From: an uncultured Bacteroidales bacterium
GTDB lineage: Bacteria; Bacteroidota; Bacteroidia; Bacteroidales; PUMT01
DNA length: 64,000 nt
Assembly: GCA_964520585.1 (NCBI GenBank)
Contig: CAZFOO010000005.1
Coordinates: 6,180-70,179 of the forward strand
Reading direction: 5' to 3'
In this document: positions 4,311 to 15,475 of the stretch, piece after piece
How the letters are laid out: each line of letters begins with the position of its first letter
How positions within the stretch are numbered: position 1 is the stretch's first letter
Translations under genes and position numbers: made by a program
Notes under the pieces: generated by a model
Told to the model about the DNA's origin: nothing
The model's database searches: none
Seen by the model: the letters and a program-made list of their open reading frames with translations, nothing else

Positions 4311-5597
4311 ATGATTATGAAAAACCTGATATTCATTATCCTCCTCGCAGCAAGCACCAATCTTTTATACGCTCAAACAATTGAAAAGACAGTCGATGCA
4401 TTGGTTTCGCCAAAGATTGCAGAAAAAGAAATTACGGTTGGTGGAAACGATGCCGATGTTTGCGGTTTTACCAACCAGTCCATCCAGTATGCCATTGATG
4501 CTGTTGCCAAAACAGGCGGAACGGTGAAACTGAACCCTGGGCAATACGAAATTACCGCTCCTGTGCAAATGAGATCGAATGTAAAATTAGTGGGTTCCGG
4601 CAGGGAAACCATTTTGAAACGGGGGAAAGGTATTCAAACCCGGTTTGTGGTGGATGCCGATTATGCAGAATTGAAACTCACTGTGGAAAATTCCGACGGT
4701 TTCGAACCGGGCATGAAAATTCAGGTAACCGACCAGAACAACAGTTCCTGCTGGAATGTTTCCACGGCTTACATCACCGATATTCAGGATGATATGATTT
4801 ACATCGACAGCTACCTCATTCGCGATTACCGTTCCGATCGTGATGGGCTGGTTTCCAATGCGTCTTCAGTTATCGAAGTAATCGGGGCTGAAAATGTGCT
4901 CATTTCCAACCTTACTGCCGACGGCAACCGTGCTGAAAACTTTTTTGCCGACGGCTGCAACAGCGCGGGAATTCTTATGATAAAATCGAAAAAAGTTACG
5001 GTGGACAAGGTTCATGTCAAAGATTTTAATGGCGAAGGAATTAGTTGGCAAATCACTGAAAATGTAACCATTCAAAACAGCGAAATTTCAGGCAGTGGCA
5101 ATACAGGGATGCACCCAGGCACGGGATCGCCTTTCACTGTTATTGAAAACAATGATGTGCATCACAACGATAACGACGGTTTGTTCATTTGCTGGCGAGT
5201 TTATCAAAGTTCGGTTACCAACAACCGTTTTCACCATAACGGAAGGTTTGGCATTTGCACTGGTCATAAAGATTCTGATGTCATTTTTATCGGAAACCAT
5301 ATTTTCGAAAACGGCAGCGATGGTGTTCACCTGAGGGGCGAACGGGAATCGAATGCTCCACACCGCAACACGTTTGTGAAAAATGTAATTGAAAATAACG
5401 GCACGAAAAACGGAGGTTACGGTTTTTCTGTCAATTCGCCCGCCCGCGATTTGGTGCTGAAAGAGAATATTTTCAGGAGTACAGGCGAGAAAACACAAAA
5501 AGCGGCTGTTTACATTCAATCCAACGGACTTTCGCCTGAACTTATTAATAATCAGATGGAAGGACATCCGGAAGGAGATGTGGTTGAGGAAAAATGA
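4311..5597 (+). CDS. secreted right-handed parallel beta-helix repeat protein
   Basis: It has a signal peptide (MIMKNLIFIILLAASTNLLYAQ). Repeated PbH1-type units are visible: IENNDVHHNDNDGLFI, VTNNRFHHNGRFGICTG, FIGNHIFENGSDGVHL and VIENNGTKNGGYGF. Confidence 0.75.
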   Translation: MIMKNLIFIILLAASTNLLYAQTIEKTVDALVSPKIAEKEITVGGNDADVCGFTNQSIQYAIDAVAKTGGTVKLNPGQYEITAPVQMRSNVKLVGSGRETILKRGKGIQTRFVVDADYAELKLTVENSDGFEPGMKIQVTDQNNSSCWNVSTAYITDIQDDMIYIDSYLIRDYRSDRDGLVSNASSVIEVIGAENVLISNLTADGNRAENFFADGCNSAGILMIKSKKVTVDKVHVKDFNGEGISWQITENVTIQNSEISGSGNTGMHPGTGSPFTVIENNDVHHNDNDGLFICWRVYQSSVTNNRFHHNGRFGICTGHKDSDVIFIGNHIFENGSDGVHLRGERESNAPHRNTFVKNVIENNGTKNGGYGFSVNSPARDLVLKENIFRSTGEKTQKAAVYIQSNGLSPELINNQMEGHPEGDVVEEK

Positions 5598-5823
5598 ATT
5601 TAACTTAAAAATCCAAATTGAATTTTTTGAGCCGGTTTTAATTCCGGCAATAAGACAAAAGTTATTTTATAGTGGATCGACTCTTACAGAGAATAGAGCT
5701 TATTGTGAGCATAATGGAAAGATGGAAGTAACAGGTGAAATCATCTCCGGTAAGGAAGTCCTTGCGCTGCTCACGGAAGGTGTATTCAATACTGTCAGTT
5801 AGGAATAAAGTCACCACCGGGGT

Positions 5824-6143
5824 AACAAAAACAAAGCCGGGAACTTTTCCTGACGAAAAAATTCCCGGCTCACTCTTCGCGGCGAACCGCTTAAGTGTCA
5901 AGCTACTGTTATTATGACTGACCTCTGTTAACTGATCCCGGAGGATCTGTTCCGAAGGTCCTGACCTTGTTCCGATCAGCTTTTTACGGCTGATGTTCAC
6001 GCTGGTCACCGTTCCTGTTATGCGGCCTGAAGTTTTTCCCGGAGGAAATCCTTCGTTTGACCTGACCGAAATATTCAAACTCTGAGGCCTGGATCATTTC
6101 AGCTTAACATCTCAAAGAACAAGTCTTTTATCCCTCACTTGAT
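5824..6143 (-). ncRNA. candidate ~320-nt structured RNA of unknown class (R-RNA copy 1)
   Basis: The span is bounded by a promoter motif (6148-6180) and a terminator. The terminator is a 13-bp stem, GCCGGGAAUUUUU/AAAAGUUCCCGGC at 5836-5869, followed by UUUGUUUUUGUU. Internal hairpins include GCGG-UUCG-CCGC, AUCAGC-N8-GCUGAU, GAUCC-UCCG-GGAUC and UUUCC-UCCG-GGAAA. It is visibly more GC-rich than the flanking intergenic DNA. Confidence 0.4.
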
Positions 6144-6147
6144 GAAA

Positions 6148-6180
6148 CAAATATAGCACTGAAAACCTGTTTTCTGCAAG
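6148..6180 (-). promoter_or_regulatory. Bacteroidota-type promoter motif for R-RNA copy 1
   Basis: The minus strand reads cTTGcag-N-gtgcTATATTTGtttcAtc. This is TTG, a 21-nt spacer, then TAnnTTTG. Confidence 0.45.
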
Positions 6181-6388
6181 TTTTTTGAACCGTTTTTGTA
6201 AACAGGAAAATAACAACGGTTATCAACATTTTGTTAATTCATTTAAGCTTTTGTAAATTAATTAATTATGCGATAATTGTTGCCAGAACAGCATCTGTTA
6301 TCAACAAAAATAAATTTAAATATGCCGGGTTATCAACATCCAGTAAATACCAGACATTAAAAAACTACCCTGTGAAATAGTTGAATTT

Positions 6389-8695
6389 CTAATAGGTTAA
6401 CTTTATTTCAGTAATTATTATTCTTCCCGGAGCTATCATGTTCCTGGAGTCGGTGTATTCATGATCAAAAAGATTATGTGCTTTAAGAGACAAGGAATAT
6501 CCCCGGTAAATATTCTTCCACAGTTTCAGATCAATATATCTGAATGCCTCTGTTTTTTCGGAATTTACATCATTAATCCATTGAGAACCTTTATGGTTAA
6601 CAGAGATAAATGCATTCAGATACCTGTTCCTCCAGGCTATTGAAGTGAAAATCATATCTTTTGGCTGATAAGCAAGCTCATTACCTGTCAAATCATTATC
6701 CTTATCCTGATTTAGAACCCGGAATTCTGTTATTTCTGTATTTATATGACTATATGCCAGCGACAAGTCAAGTCCCCGGAAAATCTGGAGTTCCAGTCCA
6801 AGTTCTAAGCCAGTTACGGATACCCGGGCAATATTATCCATAATTCTAATGGGCCTTAAACGGTCGTTTAATACAATTGAATCGCCTGTGGAAATATAAC
6901 CGTGATAATCTGTTCCCCTTGAATGAAAGATATTGGGAGAAATAGTTATTCCCCCTCCAATGAATATATCTCCTCCAATCTCCACATTATCCAGATGTTC
7001 TGGTTTTAAATCCGGATTCCCCACCTTCATCCCACCCCTGATAAGGCCTGTCCGGCTCATATCGTCCAGTACCGGTGCCCTGAAACCACGGCTGTATCCC
7101 CCATAAATGCGATAAAGTCCTGTGTAGTGGTATTGCAATGATAATCGGGGACTAAATGCAGCAAATACCGCTTCTTCGATATCTTTTTCATAATCCTGCA
7201 GAAATCCAGTTTCCTTTGTTGGATCTTCAATGTTAAAAGCTCCATTGAAAAAACGGGCATAATCATATCTTATTCCTGTGAGTAAAACCCATCTTGTGCC
7301 AGATAATGAGAACTCATCCTGAATATAAAAGCCAAACAGGTTCATTTTTCCCTTATTGAAGACTTTATCGGAAGATGTTATATAAATATCAGCCCCGTCC
7401 ACAGAACCATTCCTAAGATCAATTCCCGTGGTGAGCATATGAGATTTGGAAGGTGAAAACGACCAGGAAGATAGGAATCCGGAATCATCACGCAGGGATT
7501 CGACATCGTATCTGGTTATCAGATTGCTTCTTAAACTTTCACTTATTTTCTGGTAATTTTCACTTTGCCCATGCACTGTTAAGTTCATGTGACTGTTGTT
7601 GGCAAAATATCCATTATAGGCAACACGGGTGTTAATATTGCTGTAATTGTTAAATGCTCCCTCTTGCGAAGCTAGTTCATTGTTTGGAAAACCATGTCCG
7701 AAAAAACGAGTGCCGGTACCTCTTTTGCCATTGTAAAAACTACCGGAGACCTCGATCAGCTGATCCTTTCCGATATAATATCCCGCTCTGCCGCCTAGCT
7801 GATATTCATTAAGGAATGAAGCAACTGAGTATTCATCTGTTTCATCTGCAGGAATGCTGAGATATCCGTCACTGTCACGATAAATACCGCTAAAGTTCCA
7901 GAAAATATCATTTTTCCGTCCACCTATACCTGCCCTGGTGTCGAATGTATTGAAACTGCCAATACCCTGACTTGCATATCCTTCCAGGGATTCTTGTGGT
8001 GCTGCTGTTCTGAGGTTAATGACTCCACCCATAGCATTACCACCGTGAATTGAAGATCCAGCACCTTTAACTACTTCTATTTGTTTAATCTGCTCATTAT
8101 CTATAGCATTCCAATTCACACTTCCACCATCTGATTTATTAACCGGCACCCCGTCAACCATAACCAAAGTGCGTCCTGCCTCGTTTCCCATGCCTCTGAG
8201 TGAAACATTCGCTGAGCCAAAGATTGAAGCTCCTCTGCTGACAAGAATTCCTGGAACTGATCTTAGCAGATCATCAGCAGACAAGGAAGGGAGGTTATCA
8301 ATTTTCTTCTCATTCAGGATATCGGTTCTTACTGGAACATTATATATGCCCCGCCGATTCCTTGTCGCAGTCACAATTATTTTTTCAAGAATTTCTGTCC
8401 GTGGTTGCAGGTGAATTATAACCGGGCTATCATTAGGTTTGCAGGCTAATTCGGCGGACCGGTATCCTATGTGGGTTATTAATATTACAACACTATCGTC
8501 ACTGCTAACTTCAATGTCAAATCTTCCTTTCTGATCGGTTGAGGTACCGGTTCCCGTTCCTTTGACCTGAACATTTGCGTAGGCCACTCCCACTGATGTC
8601 TGTTGATCAACAATATCACCGGAGATGAAGTGCTGAGCGGTTATTATGGTATTTCCACTAATGATTAATAAAATAGCAATGAGTGTTTTTTTCAT
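6389..8695 (-). CDS. TonB-dependent receptor with CarboxypepD_reg-like N-domain
   Basis: 768 aa with a signal peptide and a CarboxypepD_reg-like segment (ISGDIVDQQTSVGVAYANVQVKGT). Plug motifs are present (LLRSVPGILVSRG, SLRGMG, VDGVPVN). A long beta-barrel ends in an aromatic residue (KLTY). Confidence 0.9.
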   Translation of the reverse strand: MKKTLIAILLIISGNTIITAQHFISGDIVDQQTSVGVAYANVQVKGTGTGTSTDQKGRFDIEVSSDDSVVILITHIGYRSAELACKPNDSPVIIHLQPRTEILEKIIVTATRNRRGIYNVPVRTDILNEKKIDNLPSLSADDLLRSVPGILVSRGASIFGSANVSLRGMGNEAGRTLVMVDGVPVNKSDGGSVNWNAIDNEQIKQIEVVKGAGSSIHGGNAMGGVINLRTAAPQESLEGYASQGIGSFNTFDTRAGIGGRKNDIFWNFSGIYRDSDGYLSIPADETDEYSVASFLNEYQLGGRAGYYIGKDQLIEVSGSFYNGKRGTGTRFFGHGFPNNELASQEGAFNNYSNINTRVAYNGYFANNSHMNLTVHGQSENYQKISESLRSNLITRYDVESLRDDSGFLSSWSFSPSKSHMLTTGIDLRNGSVDGADIYITSSDKVFNKGKMNLFGFYIQDEFSLSGTRWVLLTGIRYDYARFFNGAFNIEDPTKETGFLQDYEKDIEEAVFAAFSPRLSLQYHYTGLYRIYGGYSRGFRAPVLDDMSRTGLIRGGMKVGNPDLKPEHLDNVEIGGDIFIGGGITISPNIFHSRGTDYHGYISTGDSIVLNDRLRPIRIMDNIARVSVTGLELGLELQIFRGLDLSLAYSHINTEITEFRVLNQDKDNDLTGNELAYQPKDMIFTSIAWRNRYLNAFISVNHKGSQWINDVNSEKTEAFRYIDLKLWKNIYRGYSLSLKAHNLFDHEYTDSRNMIAPGRIIITEIKLTY

Positions 8696-9079
8696 GTATA
8701 TAAAAAGTTAGTAGTTGTGATATTTTTTTAATGTCCCATGCAGTTATGCAAATAAATCATGTCGTCATAAAAAAAGCTTATTATCTTAATATGTTATTAA
8801 GTTCATTTTGCATTTCAGAAATTTCAGTTTCTATTGCAGGGTTCACTTTTACGTAAAATTTATCGAAAAAAGCAACCATATCTTCTCCTTTCTGTGTGGG
8901 TACGGTCTGCCCGTCTCTAGCTCCCCAACGAGATTTGTCTATTAACTTAAATCCAAATTAAAAAATTATGTGGTGAAGCAATAATCGGGTTAAAGCCAAA
9001 TGGCATTAATTATTGTGTTGGATGGTCTGTATTTTGCGAATTTTTTACTATAAGGAAAGAATAAAGTCACTGCCGGGGC

Positions 9080-9399
9080 AACAAAAACAAAGCCGGGAAC
9101 TTTTCCTGACGAAAAAATTCCCGGCTCACTCTTCGCGGCGAACCGCTTAAGTGTCAAGCTACTGTTATTATGACTGACCTCTGTTAACTGATCCCGGAGG
9201 ATCTGTTCCGAAGGTCCTGACCTTGTTCCGATCAGCTTTTTACGGCTGATGTTCACGCTGGTCACCGTTCCTGTTATGCGGCCTGAAGTTTTTCCCGGAG
9301 GAAATCCTTCGTTTGACCTGACCGAAATATTCAAACTCTGAGGCCTGGATCATTTCAGCTTAACATCTCAAAGAACAAGTCTTTTATCCCTCACTTGAT
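9080..9399 (-). ncRNA. candidate ~320-nt structured RNA of unknown class (R-RNA copy 2)
   Basis: Identical to copy 1. Its terminator hairpin (9092-9125) ends ~385 nt upstream of the receptor start codon on the same strand. Confidence 0.4.
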
Positions 9400-9403
9400 G
9401 AAA

Positions 9404-9436
9404 CAAATATAGCACTGAAAACCTGTTTTCTGCAAG
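9404..9436 (-). promoter_or_regulatory. Bacteroidota-type promoter motif for R-RNA copy 2
   Basis: Identical to 6148-6180. Confidence 0.45.
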
Positions 9437-9698
9437 TTTTTTGAACCGTTTTTGTAAACAGGAAAATAACAACGGTTATCAACATTTTGTTAATTCATTT
9501 AAGCTTTTGTAAATTAATTAATTATGCGATAATTGTTGCCAGAACAGCATCTGTTATCAACAAAAATATTTTTCCATAAGCCGTTTTATCAACACACAAG
9601 TAAACACTAGGCATAAAGAACTTAGTTTATTCTATTGATTTTATAAGATGATATAAAAGCACCGGTTTTGCAGCAGTAATCCGGAAATTGCTTTATAT

Positions 9699-14755: not shown

Positions 14756-15475
14756 TTAATTATTATAATTAACCGGTTCCAAAGTCTCCGGCACATTTGA
14801 ATCACGATTTTTATCGGTTATTCTCTTACTGATGCTATATGCATTCATTCTGCCTGGATCAAATGGCTGCAATAAAGATTTCCGAAAGGATTTATCTTTA
14901 TTCAGCCATTTTTTTTCAGTCACCTGATCAAGTATTACGGGCATTCTTCTTTTGCTGTTATGTATTTTAGCTGTCAGGGAGTTTGCGTCACAAGTGATGA
15001 TTGAAAACGAACGTAAGATCTCCCCAGTGTGTTCATTGATCCATTCTTCCCAAATACCGGCGAAGGAAAAAACCGGCATGTCGGGTATGAAAATAAAGAA
15101 GGGGGTTTTTCCGGTGGACTTGTGCATCCATTCGAAATAACCTGTAGCTGGTATCAAGCAGGGCCTGTAAGAATATGCACCTCTGAAACTGGGTTTTGAG
15201 TCAACAGTCTCAGCCCTTGCGTTAAGAGTTGCCGACCGAATCTTAAGTGCCTGTTCTTCATTTTTAACCCACGAAGGTACCAGTCCCCATTGCATTAATT
15301 CCATGTTTAAATCATCTGTTCTATTAACCTTATAAACAGATGGTAATGAATTGTGATTAAATCCATTTACGTGATAATAAACCGGCTCCGGATTAATTCC
15401 GGTCCTTTTAATATTTATACCATACCGGTCTGCGATCTCCCGGGCGGTCTTCGCTAAGGAATAATGATAACACAT
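14756..15475 (-). CDS. SOS response-associated peptidase (SRAP/YedK family)
   Basis: It starts MCYHYS, with Cys2 as the nucleophile. Length (239 aa) and conserved blocks (GYFEW, PFFIF, RMPVIL) fit the family. Confidence 0.85.
   Translation of the reverse strand: MCYHYSLAKTAREIADRYGINIKRTGINPEPVYYHVNGFNHNSLPSVYKVNRTDDLNMELMQWGLVPSWVKNEEQALKIRSATLNARAETVDSKPSFRGAYSYRPCLIPATGYFEWMHKSTGKTPFFIFIPDMPVFSFAGIWEEWINEHTGEILRSFSIITCDANSLTAKIHNSKRRMPVILDQVTEKKWLNKDKSFRKSLLQPFDPGRMNAYSISKRITDKNRDSNVPETLEPVNYNN

Follow-up and report, generated by a model that had tools for sequence, protein, structure and literature searches.

Evidence for a family of free-standing structured RNA genes in the Bacteroidota

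Introduction

A stretch of about 320 nt on the minus strand of a contig from an uncultured Bacteroidales bacterium (contig CAZFOO010000005.1 of assembly GCA_964520585.1) raises the question of whether an intergenic region can be a gene in its own right whose product is a folded RNA and, if so, to what class that RNA belongs. The stretch lies at positions 5824 to 6143 of the 64,000-nt piece of DNA analyzed here, which we call the window. An initial annotation, made by reading the window alone, took the stretch for the gene of a structured, free-standing RNA whose class was unknown, and the promoter, terminator, covariation and unrelated genomic contexts described below all support that proposal. 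Of the findings that the annotation named as refuting it, none emerged from the computational tests. We conclude that 6143 to 5824 is a real stand-alone gene for a folded RNA of about 320 nt, and we are highly confident that it belongs to a genuine family of structured noncoding RNA genes. The general kind, a free-standing structured noncoding RNA, is already familiar. Few structured RNA classes are widespread, and every one of them has given rise to a field of research (RNase P, riboswitches, 6S, OLE, ROOL). We know of neither Hfq nor ProQ in the Bacteroidota, and to our knowledge the RNA biology of this phylum is poorly charted.

Results and Discussion

Anatomy of the RNA gene

All parts of the gene described here lie on the minus strand. 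The promoter motif can be read directly from the sequence: a TTG at 6179-6177, the -33 element, is followed after 21 nt by the -7 box TATATTTG at 6155-6148. The TTG falls in conserved alignment columns, and the -7 box, which is of the Bacteroidota TAnnTTTG type, is invariant in the alignment. AUCAAGUGAGGGAUAAAAG follows seven bases after TATATTTG, and the predicted transcript starts at about A6143. Across the family, a -7 box of the form TAnnTTT[G/A] starts 12-13 nt before a conserved 5' block in 67 of 77 members (87%), compared with 2.8% of control windows. This fixed distance indicates that the 5' block comprises the first nucleotides of the transcript and marks the family as Bacteroidota.

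At the 3' end, a GC-clamped hairpin (5870-5835) followed by UUGUUUUUGUU down to 5824 forms an intrinsic terminator (5824-5870) with CGGGAA/UUCCCG at the base of its stem, as indicated by both a terminator scan and covariation. The initial annotation had described this hairpin correctly except for the length of its stem, which is 16-17 bp and not 13 bp; a simple terminator scan returned a 17-pair stem with a T-tract. The G+C content is 0.45-0.50 within the stretch and 0.28-0.35 immediately upstream, and the internal hairpins listed at the outset (GCGG-UUCG-CCGC, AUCAGC/GCUGAU and two with the core YCC-UCCG-GGR) were all found on the minus strand. The 320-nt stretch has a minimum free energy of -109 kcal/mol compared with -85 ± 4.75 kcal/mol for dinucleotide shuffles (z = -5.05), and none of 100 shuffles was equally stable. 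Family alignments and a match to our covariance model of the 3' domain (5828-5932, 79.7 bits) likewise support the gene at 5824-6143, hereafter copy 1.

The extent first given, about 320 nt, holds for the RNA, but the conserved unit is wider by roughly 200 nt of operator-bearing upstream DNA. The whole repeated unit, comprising operator region, promoter, RNA and terminator, spans 5790-6366 and has a partner at 9046-9622. Downstream of copy 1, the convergent gene end noted initially is real: a gene for a beta-helix protein (4311-5597, plus strand) ends 226 nt beyond the RNA. However, the gene fragment said to lie in between is not firmly supported, as the open reading frame (ORF) at 5578-5802 has weak similarity (E 0.07-0.35) to a neighbor protein.

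A large family in genomes and metagenomes

Homologs gathered as the initial annotation had suggested form a large Bacteroidota family, present in genomes and metagenomes and set in unrelated gene neighborhoods. Each collection was scanned with a single exact sequence pattern. The 3' block (GTCATAATAACNGTAGCTTGAC) was found in species-representative genomes at 19 loci in about 16 genomes, mostly metagenome-assembled genomes (MAGs) of Bacteroidales, Cyclobacteriaceae, Roseivirga and Cecembia, many of them from soda-lake sediments. One isolate, Cyclobacteriaceae bacterium YHN15, was among the carriers, and one locus lay on a short contig binned as Gammaproteobacteria. An independent scan of metagenomes with the 5' block (ATCAAGTRAGNGATAAARGR) found at least 120 loci, which for a single 20-nt pattern points to an abundant family. 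Among the matches listed, the 3' block lay 123-566 nt downstream of the 5' block in 60 of 122, and the modeled 3' domain was present in about 72 of 120 metagenome loci according to a tally of the match tables. The remaining metagenome matches were truncated at contig ends or corresponded to approximately the number expected by chance for that pattern. Over all loci searched, the 3'-domain model gave about 105 matches (72 + 33), and the length of the RNA ranged from 216 to 650 nt.

Close relatives were also reached through a 114-aa ORF that a gene caller had placed inside the element. A search with it returned eight ORFs of 62-103 aa with inconsistent ends, and each of their contigs carries one whole unit of about 570 nt set between unrelated genes. 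In a DNA alignment of these relatives the transcribed part was about 95% identical, the upstream DNA had diverged except for the boxes discussed below and the promoter, and conservation ended immediately after the U-tract. Divergent members share only the 5' block, the 3' block, the hairpin and terminator that follow it, and the upstream boxes.

Flanking genes differ from lineage to lineage, with synteny only within lineages; the recurrent neighbors that could be identified encode SOS-response-associated peptidase (SRAP), ClpS, beta-lactamase-like, phosphatase and SDR proteins. When the nearest downstream ORF of 150 aa or more was taken at each locus, 24 shared the strand of the RNA and 30 lay on the other strand; many of the latter are convergent genes that abut the terminator. 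The family-wide contexts thus bear out the original view that the RNA is not a 5' leader.

Conserved structure and covariation

The ends of the RNA come together. In the consensus folds of three sub-families, obtained independently with RNAalifold, the 5' UCAAGU pairs with RCUUGA of the 3' block to form helix P1 (UCAAGU at 6137-6142 and GCUUGA at 5898-5903 in copy 1). A second short helix, P1b, is formed by G-R-Y following GAUAAAAG and the R-Y-C that opens the 3' block (GACU at 6122-6125 and AGUC at 5916-5919). Covariation in P1b is strong: all three positions are paired in 73 of 76 sequences through eight combinations, among them GAC:GUC, GGC:GCC, GGU:ACC, GAG:CUC and GGA:UCC. This amounts to 225 of 228 cells paired, compared with 209 ± 2.2 after partner shuffling; with one sequence per sub-family, 70 of 72 cells are paired compared with 61.6 ± 1.5, a value reached in 0 of 5000 shuffles. 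Pairing between the two blocks also explains better than a GYCA...UGRC hairpin within the 3' block, which was considered and rejected, the complementarity seen there.

P1 and P1b clamp an internal loop of about 11 x 12 nt. Its 5' strand, GAGGGAUAAAA (6126-6136; consensus RAGNGAUAAAR), and its 3' strand, AUAAUAACAGUA (5904-5915; consensus AYAAUAACNGUA, the block used for the genome scan), are essentially invariant among 24 sub-family representatives. Beyond the loop the RNA varies. In the consensus for the sub-family of the window (16 sequences), P1, the loop and P1b lead into a four-way junction with arms P2, P3 and P4, and the 3' hairpin and terminator complete the molecule. P2 (6010-6121) is an outer helix around two hairpins, of which one has a C(UCCG)G cap and the other a tip that varies, as derived from the consensus and pair counts. 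P3 (5962-6008) consists of UGACC...GGUCA with internal loops and the AUCAGC/GCUGAU hairpin, and P4 (5920-5960) of GACC...GGUC with a GAUCC-UCCG-GGAUC hairpin; compensatory changes were found in four and five of their pairs, respectively. This structure was 97.8% paired, with double changes at 13 pairs compared with 5.9 in shuffles and at most 6 when the pairing partners were slid. Throughout the family the body is rich in GNRA and UNCG loops and forms a multi-helix scaffold that varies among lineages; apart from GNRA-loop words, the middle region holds almost no words common to the sub-families.

The hairpin past P1 (CACU...AGUG enclosing GCGG-UUCG-CCGC, 5871-5897) showed compensatory changes in 13 of 13 family pairs, and its cap is usually a loop of the CUACGG type. 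The structure of this 3' domain was set by hand and built into a covariance model, as MAFFT and RNAalifold had missed the 3' hairpin through register errors. For the hairpin and terminator together, the seed alignment was 84% paired against 69%, with double changes in 25 of 28 pairs and a covariation score of 0.52 compared with at most 0.205 when slid. In the model-based alignment of 72 matches, 89.1% of positions were paired compared with 67.2% in shuffles, and the score was 0.552 compared with at most 0.117 when slid; 0 of 500 shuffles reached the observed value. The model-based alignment leans towards the structure because it was fitted to the model, a bias from which the MAFFT-based seed count is free. 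Covariation, which the initial annotation had named as a check, is evident in helices of the family and withstands both shuffle and slide controls. We also observed sequence conservation throughout the family at the foot of the terminator stem (CGGGAA...UUCCCG) and in the GUGAA that precedes it. Such conservation is unusual in intrinsic terminators, and this one may have a role beyond termination.

Searches for known RNA families

The class of this RNA had been left open, with a search of Rfam as the proposed check. None of the 4227 models of Rfam 15 matches the window or 20 divergent members: at gathering thresholds there were 0 matches on the whole window, and the 20 member loci gave only two tRNAs located elsewhere. 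Permissive searches of the window and member loci (37 member-locus scans overall) gave scattered matches at chance level and no recurrent family; the only YrlB match (16.8 bits, E = 2.6) fell on the terminator and was itself at chance level. Models of transfer-messenger RNA (tmRNA), signal recognition particle RNA and RNase P RNA had no match on the window or member loci, and the models RF00013, RF01685 and RF01693 for RNAs of the 6S type, a group that includes Bacteroidales-1 and 6S-Flavo, did not score on the window or the members scanned. The cobalamin riboswitch (RF00174) had no match in the window even at E ≤ 10, and the genomic contexts are unrelated.

The UAAUAA in the 3' block led us to consider tmRNA separately. 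This candidate was rejected: ARAGORN found no tRNA-like gene or tmRNA in the window, there is no tag ORF, and no conserved ORF precedes the UAAUAA. A search of the literature by sequence string and by topic, limited in extent, found no description of the family, and the main text of the two most recent systematic surveys of GC-rich intergenic regions (GC-IGRs) mentions no Bacteroidetes taxa.

Upstream boxes

Upstream of the promoter, copy 1 carries an operator-like imperfect palindrome, AATTAACA-AAA-TGTTGATAA, at 6220-6239 with its forward box at -85 (9476-9495 in the second copy described below), and further boxes of sequence TGTTGATAA at -163 (6298-6306) and -195 (6330-6338), all on the minus strand. 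The commonest upstream words in the family are TGTTAATAA (31 of 74 loci) and TGTTGATAA (22 of 74). When words with at most one mismatch to the DnaA-box 9-mer TGTGGATAA are counted, TGTTGATAA among them, their density is 4.2 per kb in the orientation of the RNA, compared with 0.4 per kb in the reverse orientation and 0.3 per kb downstream. The positions are conserved as well: most sub-families have a box at -85, which often forms a 21-bp palindrome with an inverted box at -97, and other boxes lie at -61, -93, -163 and -195. Palindromic pairs are common, and the consensus is TGTTRATAA, or more exactly TGT[T>G][G/A]ATAA.

The boxes in the window match the DnaA box TTATCCACA at 8 of 9 positions, and some Cyclobacteriaceae relatives have a perfect TGTGGATAA. 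Three loci (L076, L115 and L137) carry perfect DnaA-box 9-mers upstream of the RNA gene, several of them in one orientation. However, since position 4 is mostly T, reading the operator as a DnaA box is not generally supported and serves as a lead only. A LexA operator, suggested by an SRAP gene in the neighborhood, was also considered and rejected, as the boxes do not match the GGA-N5-TCC or CTAA-N5-TTAG of Bacteroidota SOS boxes (PMC8565304).

A few lineages with short RNAs lack TGTTRATAA boxes and instead carry TGAT-N4-ATCA palindromes centered near -41.5 and -63.5. Such palindromes were seen at L075 and L111 (-69 and -47 from the RNA start) and also at L028, L101 and L153. Operators at -41.5 and -63.5 have the geometry known for Crp/Fnr-type activators. 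To judge from these motifs, the lineages seem to have placed homologous RNA genes under the control of different regulators.

Proposed function and alternative explanations

With the anatomy of the gene, its family, its structure, its noncoding status and its independence from neighboring genes established, the question becomes what the RNA does. We propose that this is a regulated stand-alone gene whose RNA would act in trans. It would be transcribed from a Bacteroidota sigma-A-type promoter, with a DNA-binding protein on the phased TGTTRATAA boxes (about -61 to -195) probably setting its activity, and transcription would stop at the intrinsic terminator. The extreme 5' end of the transcript would then pair with the 3' block to form P1, and the short P1b would close the loop of about 11 x 12 nt; past P1b would follow the variable multi-helix scaffold and, after P1, the structural hairpin and terminator. 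Because the loop is near-invariant while the body varies in both sequence and length, we read the molecule as a recognition site mounted on a scaffold. The clamped loop may be its working part, a sequence-specific docking site for a conserved partner, probably a protein, in which case the RNA would be a component of a regulatory or scaffolding ribonucleoprotein (RNP). As to whether the gene is regulated and its structured RNA acts in trans by docking a conserved partner (most likely a protein) on the clamped loop, we consider the proposal evenly balanced between right and wrong; we infer the action in trans, the role of the loop and the type of partner. The sharp split between a near-invariant clamp loop and a freely varying body makes a precise target for mutation, and since the RNA gene is carried by an isolate, Cyclobacteriaceae bacterium YHN15, and by MAGs placed in Cecembia and Roseivirga, both of them cultured genera, the proposal is directly testable.

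Several points weigh against this proposal. P1 never varies and covariation is therefore silent on it, so that the predicted helix has thermodynamic consensus as its support. The existence of the transcript, the position of its ends and its abundance are predicted from sequence. Clustering of the neighborhoods found no recurrent protein partner beside the RNA gene. Regulation is not uniform, since lineages use different upstream operators. Finally, by analogy, an invariant and partly single-stranded 5'-terminal sequence would also be expected of a seed-pairing small RNA (sRNA), and a body with a junction and many GNRA and UNCG loops would also be typical of ribozymes and ligand-binding RNAs.

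The first of these analogies suggests a base-pairing sRNA that uses the invariant 5' segment, the AUAAUAAC strand or both as seeds for mRNAs, for example around start codons, with the body serving for stability. Consistent with this, the invariant sequence begins at the first transcribed nucleotide, as in sRNAs with a 5' seed; CAUAAUAAC is complementary to GUUAUUAUG, in which there is a start codon; there are several copies per genome, as in paralogous sRNA families; and expression appears to be regulated. However, both candidate seeds lie in an internal loop clamped by P1 and the covarying P1b, and an RNA of 216-650 nt with junctions and ornate loops is far larger and more elaborate than typical seed sRNAs. 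No target was identified in the 64-kb window, which is too small for a meaningful target search. We regard an sRNA of this kind as doubtful, while taking it seriously.

A catalytic or ligand-sensing RNA, that is, a new ribozyme or a trans-acting aptamer in which the clamped loop docks on a junction arm to form an active or binding site, appears improbable. The near-invariant loop nucleotides do adjoin a multi-way junction, with peripheral helices that vary and end in GNRA or UNCG caps, and there is a loose resemblance to the natural hairpin ribozyme, in which the A/U-rich loop strand GUAUAUUAC may be set beside AUAAUAAC of this RNA. However, no Rfam ribozyme model (hairpin, twister-sister and other self-cleaving types) or riboswitch model scores, even below threshold; there is no regulated downstream gene; and the GUC beside the loop sits within helix P1b and not in the loop.

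A bolder reading would make the family a hitherto undescribed, phylum-wide class of large structured RNA with the loop as its active centre, whether for RNP recognition, catalysis or ligand binding, and would have the units kept identical by gene conversion and serving as recombination substrates that rewire operons, among them the operon of the ModE-like and receptor genes described below. We put this forward tentatively, as a speculation more apt to fail than to hold. If true, it would add a new entry to the few widespread classes of functional RNA.

The second copy and the receptor gene

The initial annotation had also implied a second copy, and comparison of the region with the window by BLASTN and nhmmer located it at 9399 to 9080 on the same strand. 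Copy 2 is identical in sequence over the RNA gene (9080-9399, offset +3256), has its -7 box at 9404-9411 and matches the 3'-domain model at 9084-9188. The two units (6366-5790 and 9622-9046) are identical at 555 of 578 positions. A core of 484 nt (6307-5824 and 9563-9080) is 100% identical and terminates exactly at the 3' end of the RNA, while the edges, about 58 nt on the 5' side and 36 nt on the 3' side, are some 60-70% identical. Because an identical core is flanked by diverged edges, the arrangement looks like gene conversion of older paralogs or a recombination junction and not like a fresh segmental duplication. An independent MAG assembly with 99.5% identity over 9.4 kb holds both copies, and the pair is therefore no one-off assembly artefact.

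Between the copies lies the gene for a 768-aa TonB-dependent receptor (8695-6389, minus strand) with Plug, barrel and CarboxypepD_reg domains; the 3' end of copy 2 (9080) is about 385 nt upstream of its ATG (8695). A FetA/FetB-like ABC exporter gene pair is divergent from copy 2. At four loci with flanking sequence, orthologs of the receptor (55-75% identity) have directly upstream an intact gene of 123-124 aa for a helix-turn-helix (HTH) protein of the ModE-repressor type, and neither locus comparison nor model search found the RNA element there. In the window, 8957-8781 (minus strand) corresponds to the last ~59 codons and stop of such a gene (71% identity, E = 8e-24, to an intact ortholog). 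As only this 3' part remains, the copy 2 unit has replaced the promoter of the operon and the 5' half of the regulator. The receptor gene may thus have lost its regulator and native promoter, and it may depend on read-through from the RNA promoter of copy 2.

Copy 2, ending in a terminator upstream of the receptor gene on the same strand, could on this local evidence be taken for a cis-acting leader or attenuator, riboswitch-like, with the terminator as expression platform, and the possible need for read-through would fit. Nevertheless, we consider this very improbable: the orthologs have the intact HTH gene in place of the element, downstream of copy 1 and of most members of the family there is either no gene on the same strand or an unrelated one, and there is no conserved alternative anti-terminator pairing. 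At most, it would be a local and secondary co-option.

Several observations concern the neighborhood itself. One receptor ortholog locus adds TOBE and ModA-like (SBP_bac_11) genes (L008, 2884-3126 and 7488-8435); the context hints that the receptor is related to molybdate or tungstate, in contrast to the iron or heme receptor suggested by source annotations and sub-threshold NCBIfam matches. The region is rich in rearrangements (744-1386 on the minus strand, 2445-2723 and 5578-5802 on the plus strand, and 7873-10849 of L010) and includes a Gp49/HTH toxin-antitoxin-like pair. It holds a significant remnant (residues 60-107) of a 360-aa protein that neighbors the receptor operon in orthologous loci, with a weak second one after copy 1, and a sister assembly has a tandem duplication of a four-gene block (a 159-aa protein, PLDc_N, a 66-aa protein and DUF433). 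An SRAP gene (14756-15475, minus strand) lies 5 kb upstream of copy 2, and in cluster B loci (e.g., L040, L045 and L049), which represent one sub-family, an SRAP gene precedes the RNA gene by about 190 nt in the same orientation; this shared proximity may be a trace of ancestral synteny.

Repeated DNA and coding potential

The duplication raises a further alternative, that the unit is primarily repeated DNA, whether mobile, MITE-like or serving as a recombination module, and that its RNA-like features are incidental. Cargo is flanked by direct copies in the window, as it is in other lineages, the identical core with diverged edges is tied to the truncation of a neighboring gene, and several assemblies break inside or beside the element. 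However, compensatory changes keep the RNA helices on one strand, the promoter and terminator sit at fixed positions, and synteny is stable within lineages. No transposase was seen nearby, nor were terminal inverted repeats or target duplications, and the edges of the unit decay gradually. BLAST gave no match of the RNA element to plasmids or phages, and of the pattern matches on viral contigs (3 + 9), none was confirmed by the 3'-domain model. An explanation in terms of repeated DNA is accordingly highly unlikely.

The repetition itself was observed elsewhere. At two loci of the Cyclobacteriaceae type, L047 (copies at 2164-2270 and 7596-7703) and L050 (1200-1310 and 5750-5859), two direct copies flank a cluster of about 5 kb on the opposite strand with HPS-like, alcohol dehydrogenase, SDR, xylose-isomerase-like and SMP-30-like genes, and tandem copies 0.4-2 kb apart occur at L036, L115 and L117. 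Assemblies end inside the RNA gene or at its first nucleotides at L030, L032 and L035 (genomes) and at L037 and L131 (metagenomes), which fits a breaking of assembly graphs by near-identical multiple copies or by conservation across strains. Near-identical copies appear both to break assemblies and to mediate rearrangements.

Gene callers in public assemblies annotate "hypothetical proteins" of 62-138 aa over the RNA gene, and the spurious ORFs include 8990-9334 and 5662-6078 (both on the minus strand) in the window and 1487-1831 of L010. A protein-coding gene, whether it be the annotated ORF of 114 or 138 aa or a small one whose end falls in the conserved block, is refuted despite the 62-114-aa ORFs called across the element in several assemblies, as their starts and stops are inconsistent, no Pfam domain is present, variable sites are spread evenly over the codon phases (45/40/41, p = 0.85) with none of the codon-like pattern that was to be looked for, and no conserved ORF runs through the 3' block (49 of 56 frames lack an AUG, and open spans range from 3 to 81 codons).

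Comparison with known RNA systems

Copy 2 shares with the cobalamin, thiamine pyrophosphate (TPP) and molybdenum cofactor (Moco) riboswitches the position of a terminator-ended structured RNA upstream of a TonB-dependent receptor gene, and the receptor orthologs stand in a molybdate-type context. In contrast to these riboswitches, this RNA has no Rfam match, is absent from orthologous receptor loci and belongs to a family tied to no class of gene.

The natural hairpin ribozyme has internal loops on the arms of a four-way junction and an A/U-rich loop strand, and it serves here as a lead only. No Rfam hairpin model scores, and the loop sequences and the context of the cleavage site differ. The known hairpin ribozymes come from plant satellite RNAs and circular RNAs, and none is known from chromosomal genes with a promoter and terminator.

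Like this RNA, 6S RNA has a large internal loop between helices that its two ends form, is encoded by a stand-alone gene and sometimes occurs in more than one copy. However, 6S RNA is rod-shaped, measures about 180-200 nt and has long stems, both closing and internal, whereas in this family P1 has 6 bp and P1b 3-4 bp, the body contains a multi-way junction and the length is 216-650 nt. Bacteroidales-1 has been reported as the 6S RNA of Bacteroidales (bioRxiv 10.1101/2024.04.05.588293).

Y RNA and its bacterial counterpart YrlA likewise form a critical conserved module by pairing of the 5' and 3' ends, vary in the remainder and are encoded by small free-standing genes. In contrast, the family described here lacks a tRNA-like domain, and inspection by eye of ten cluster representatives found no rsr (Ro/TROVE) gene among the recurrent neighbors.

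The RNAs raiA, OLE, ROOL and GOLLD share with this family a free-standing gene, strong covariation, a conserved core with variable peripheral helices capped by tetraloops, a distribution that is wide but restricted by phylum, and neighboring genes that reveal no function. They differ in that this family, whose phylum is the Bacteroidota, matches none of them in Rfam 15 by sequence or structure, and in that its conservation is confined to the terminal clamp loop and the 3' hairpin and terminator, whereas theirs is spread over the whole RNA. As an RNA class the family looks new, and no relative of it was detected in curated libraries, although the function could still be one of a known kind. By analogy, it would be most like either the RNAs with a conserved terminal module, such as Y RNA, or the orphan structured RNAs, such as raiA, OLE and ROOL.

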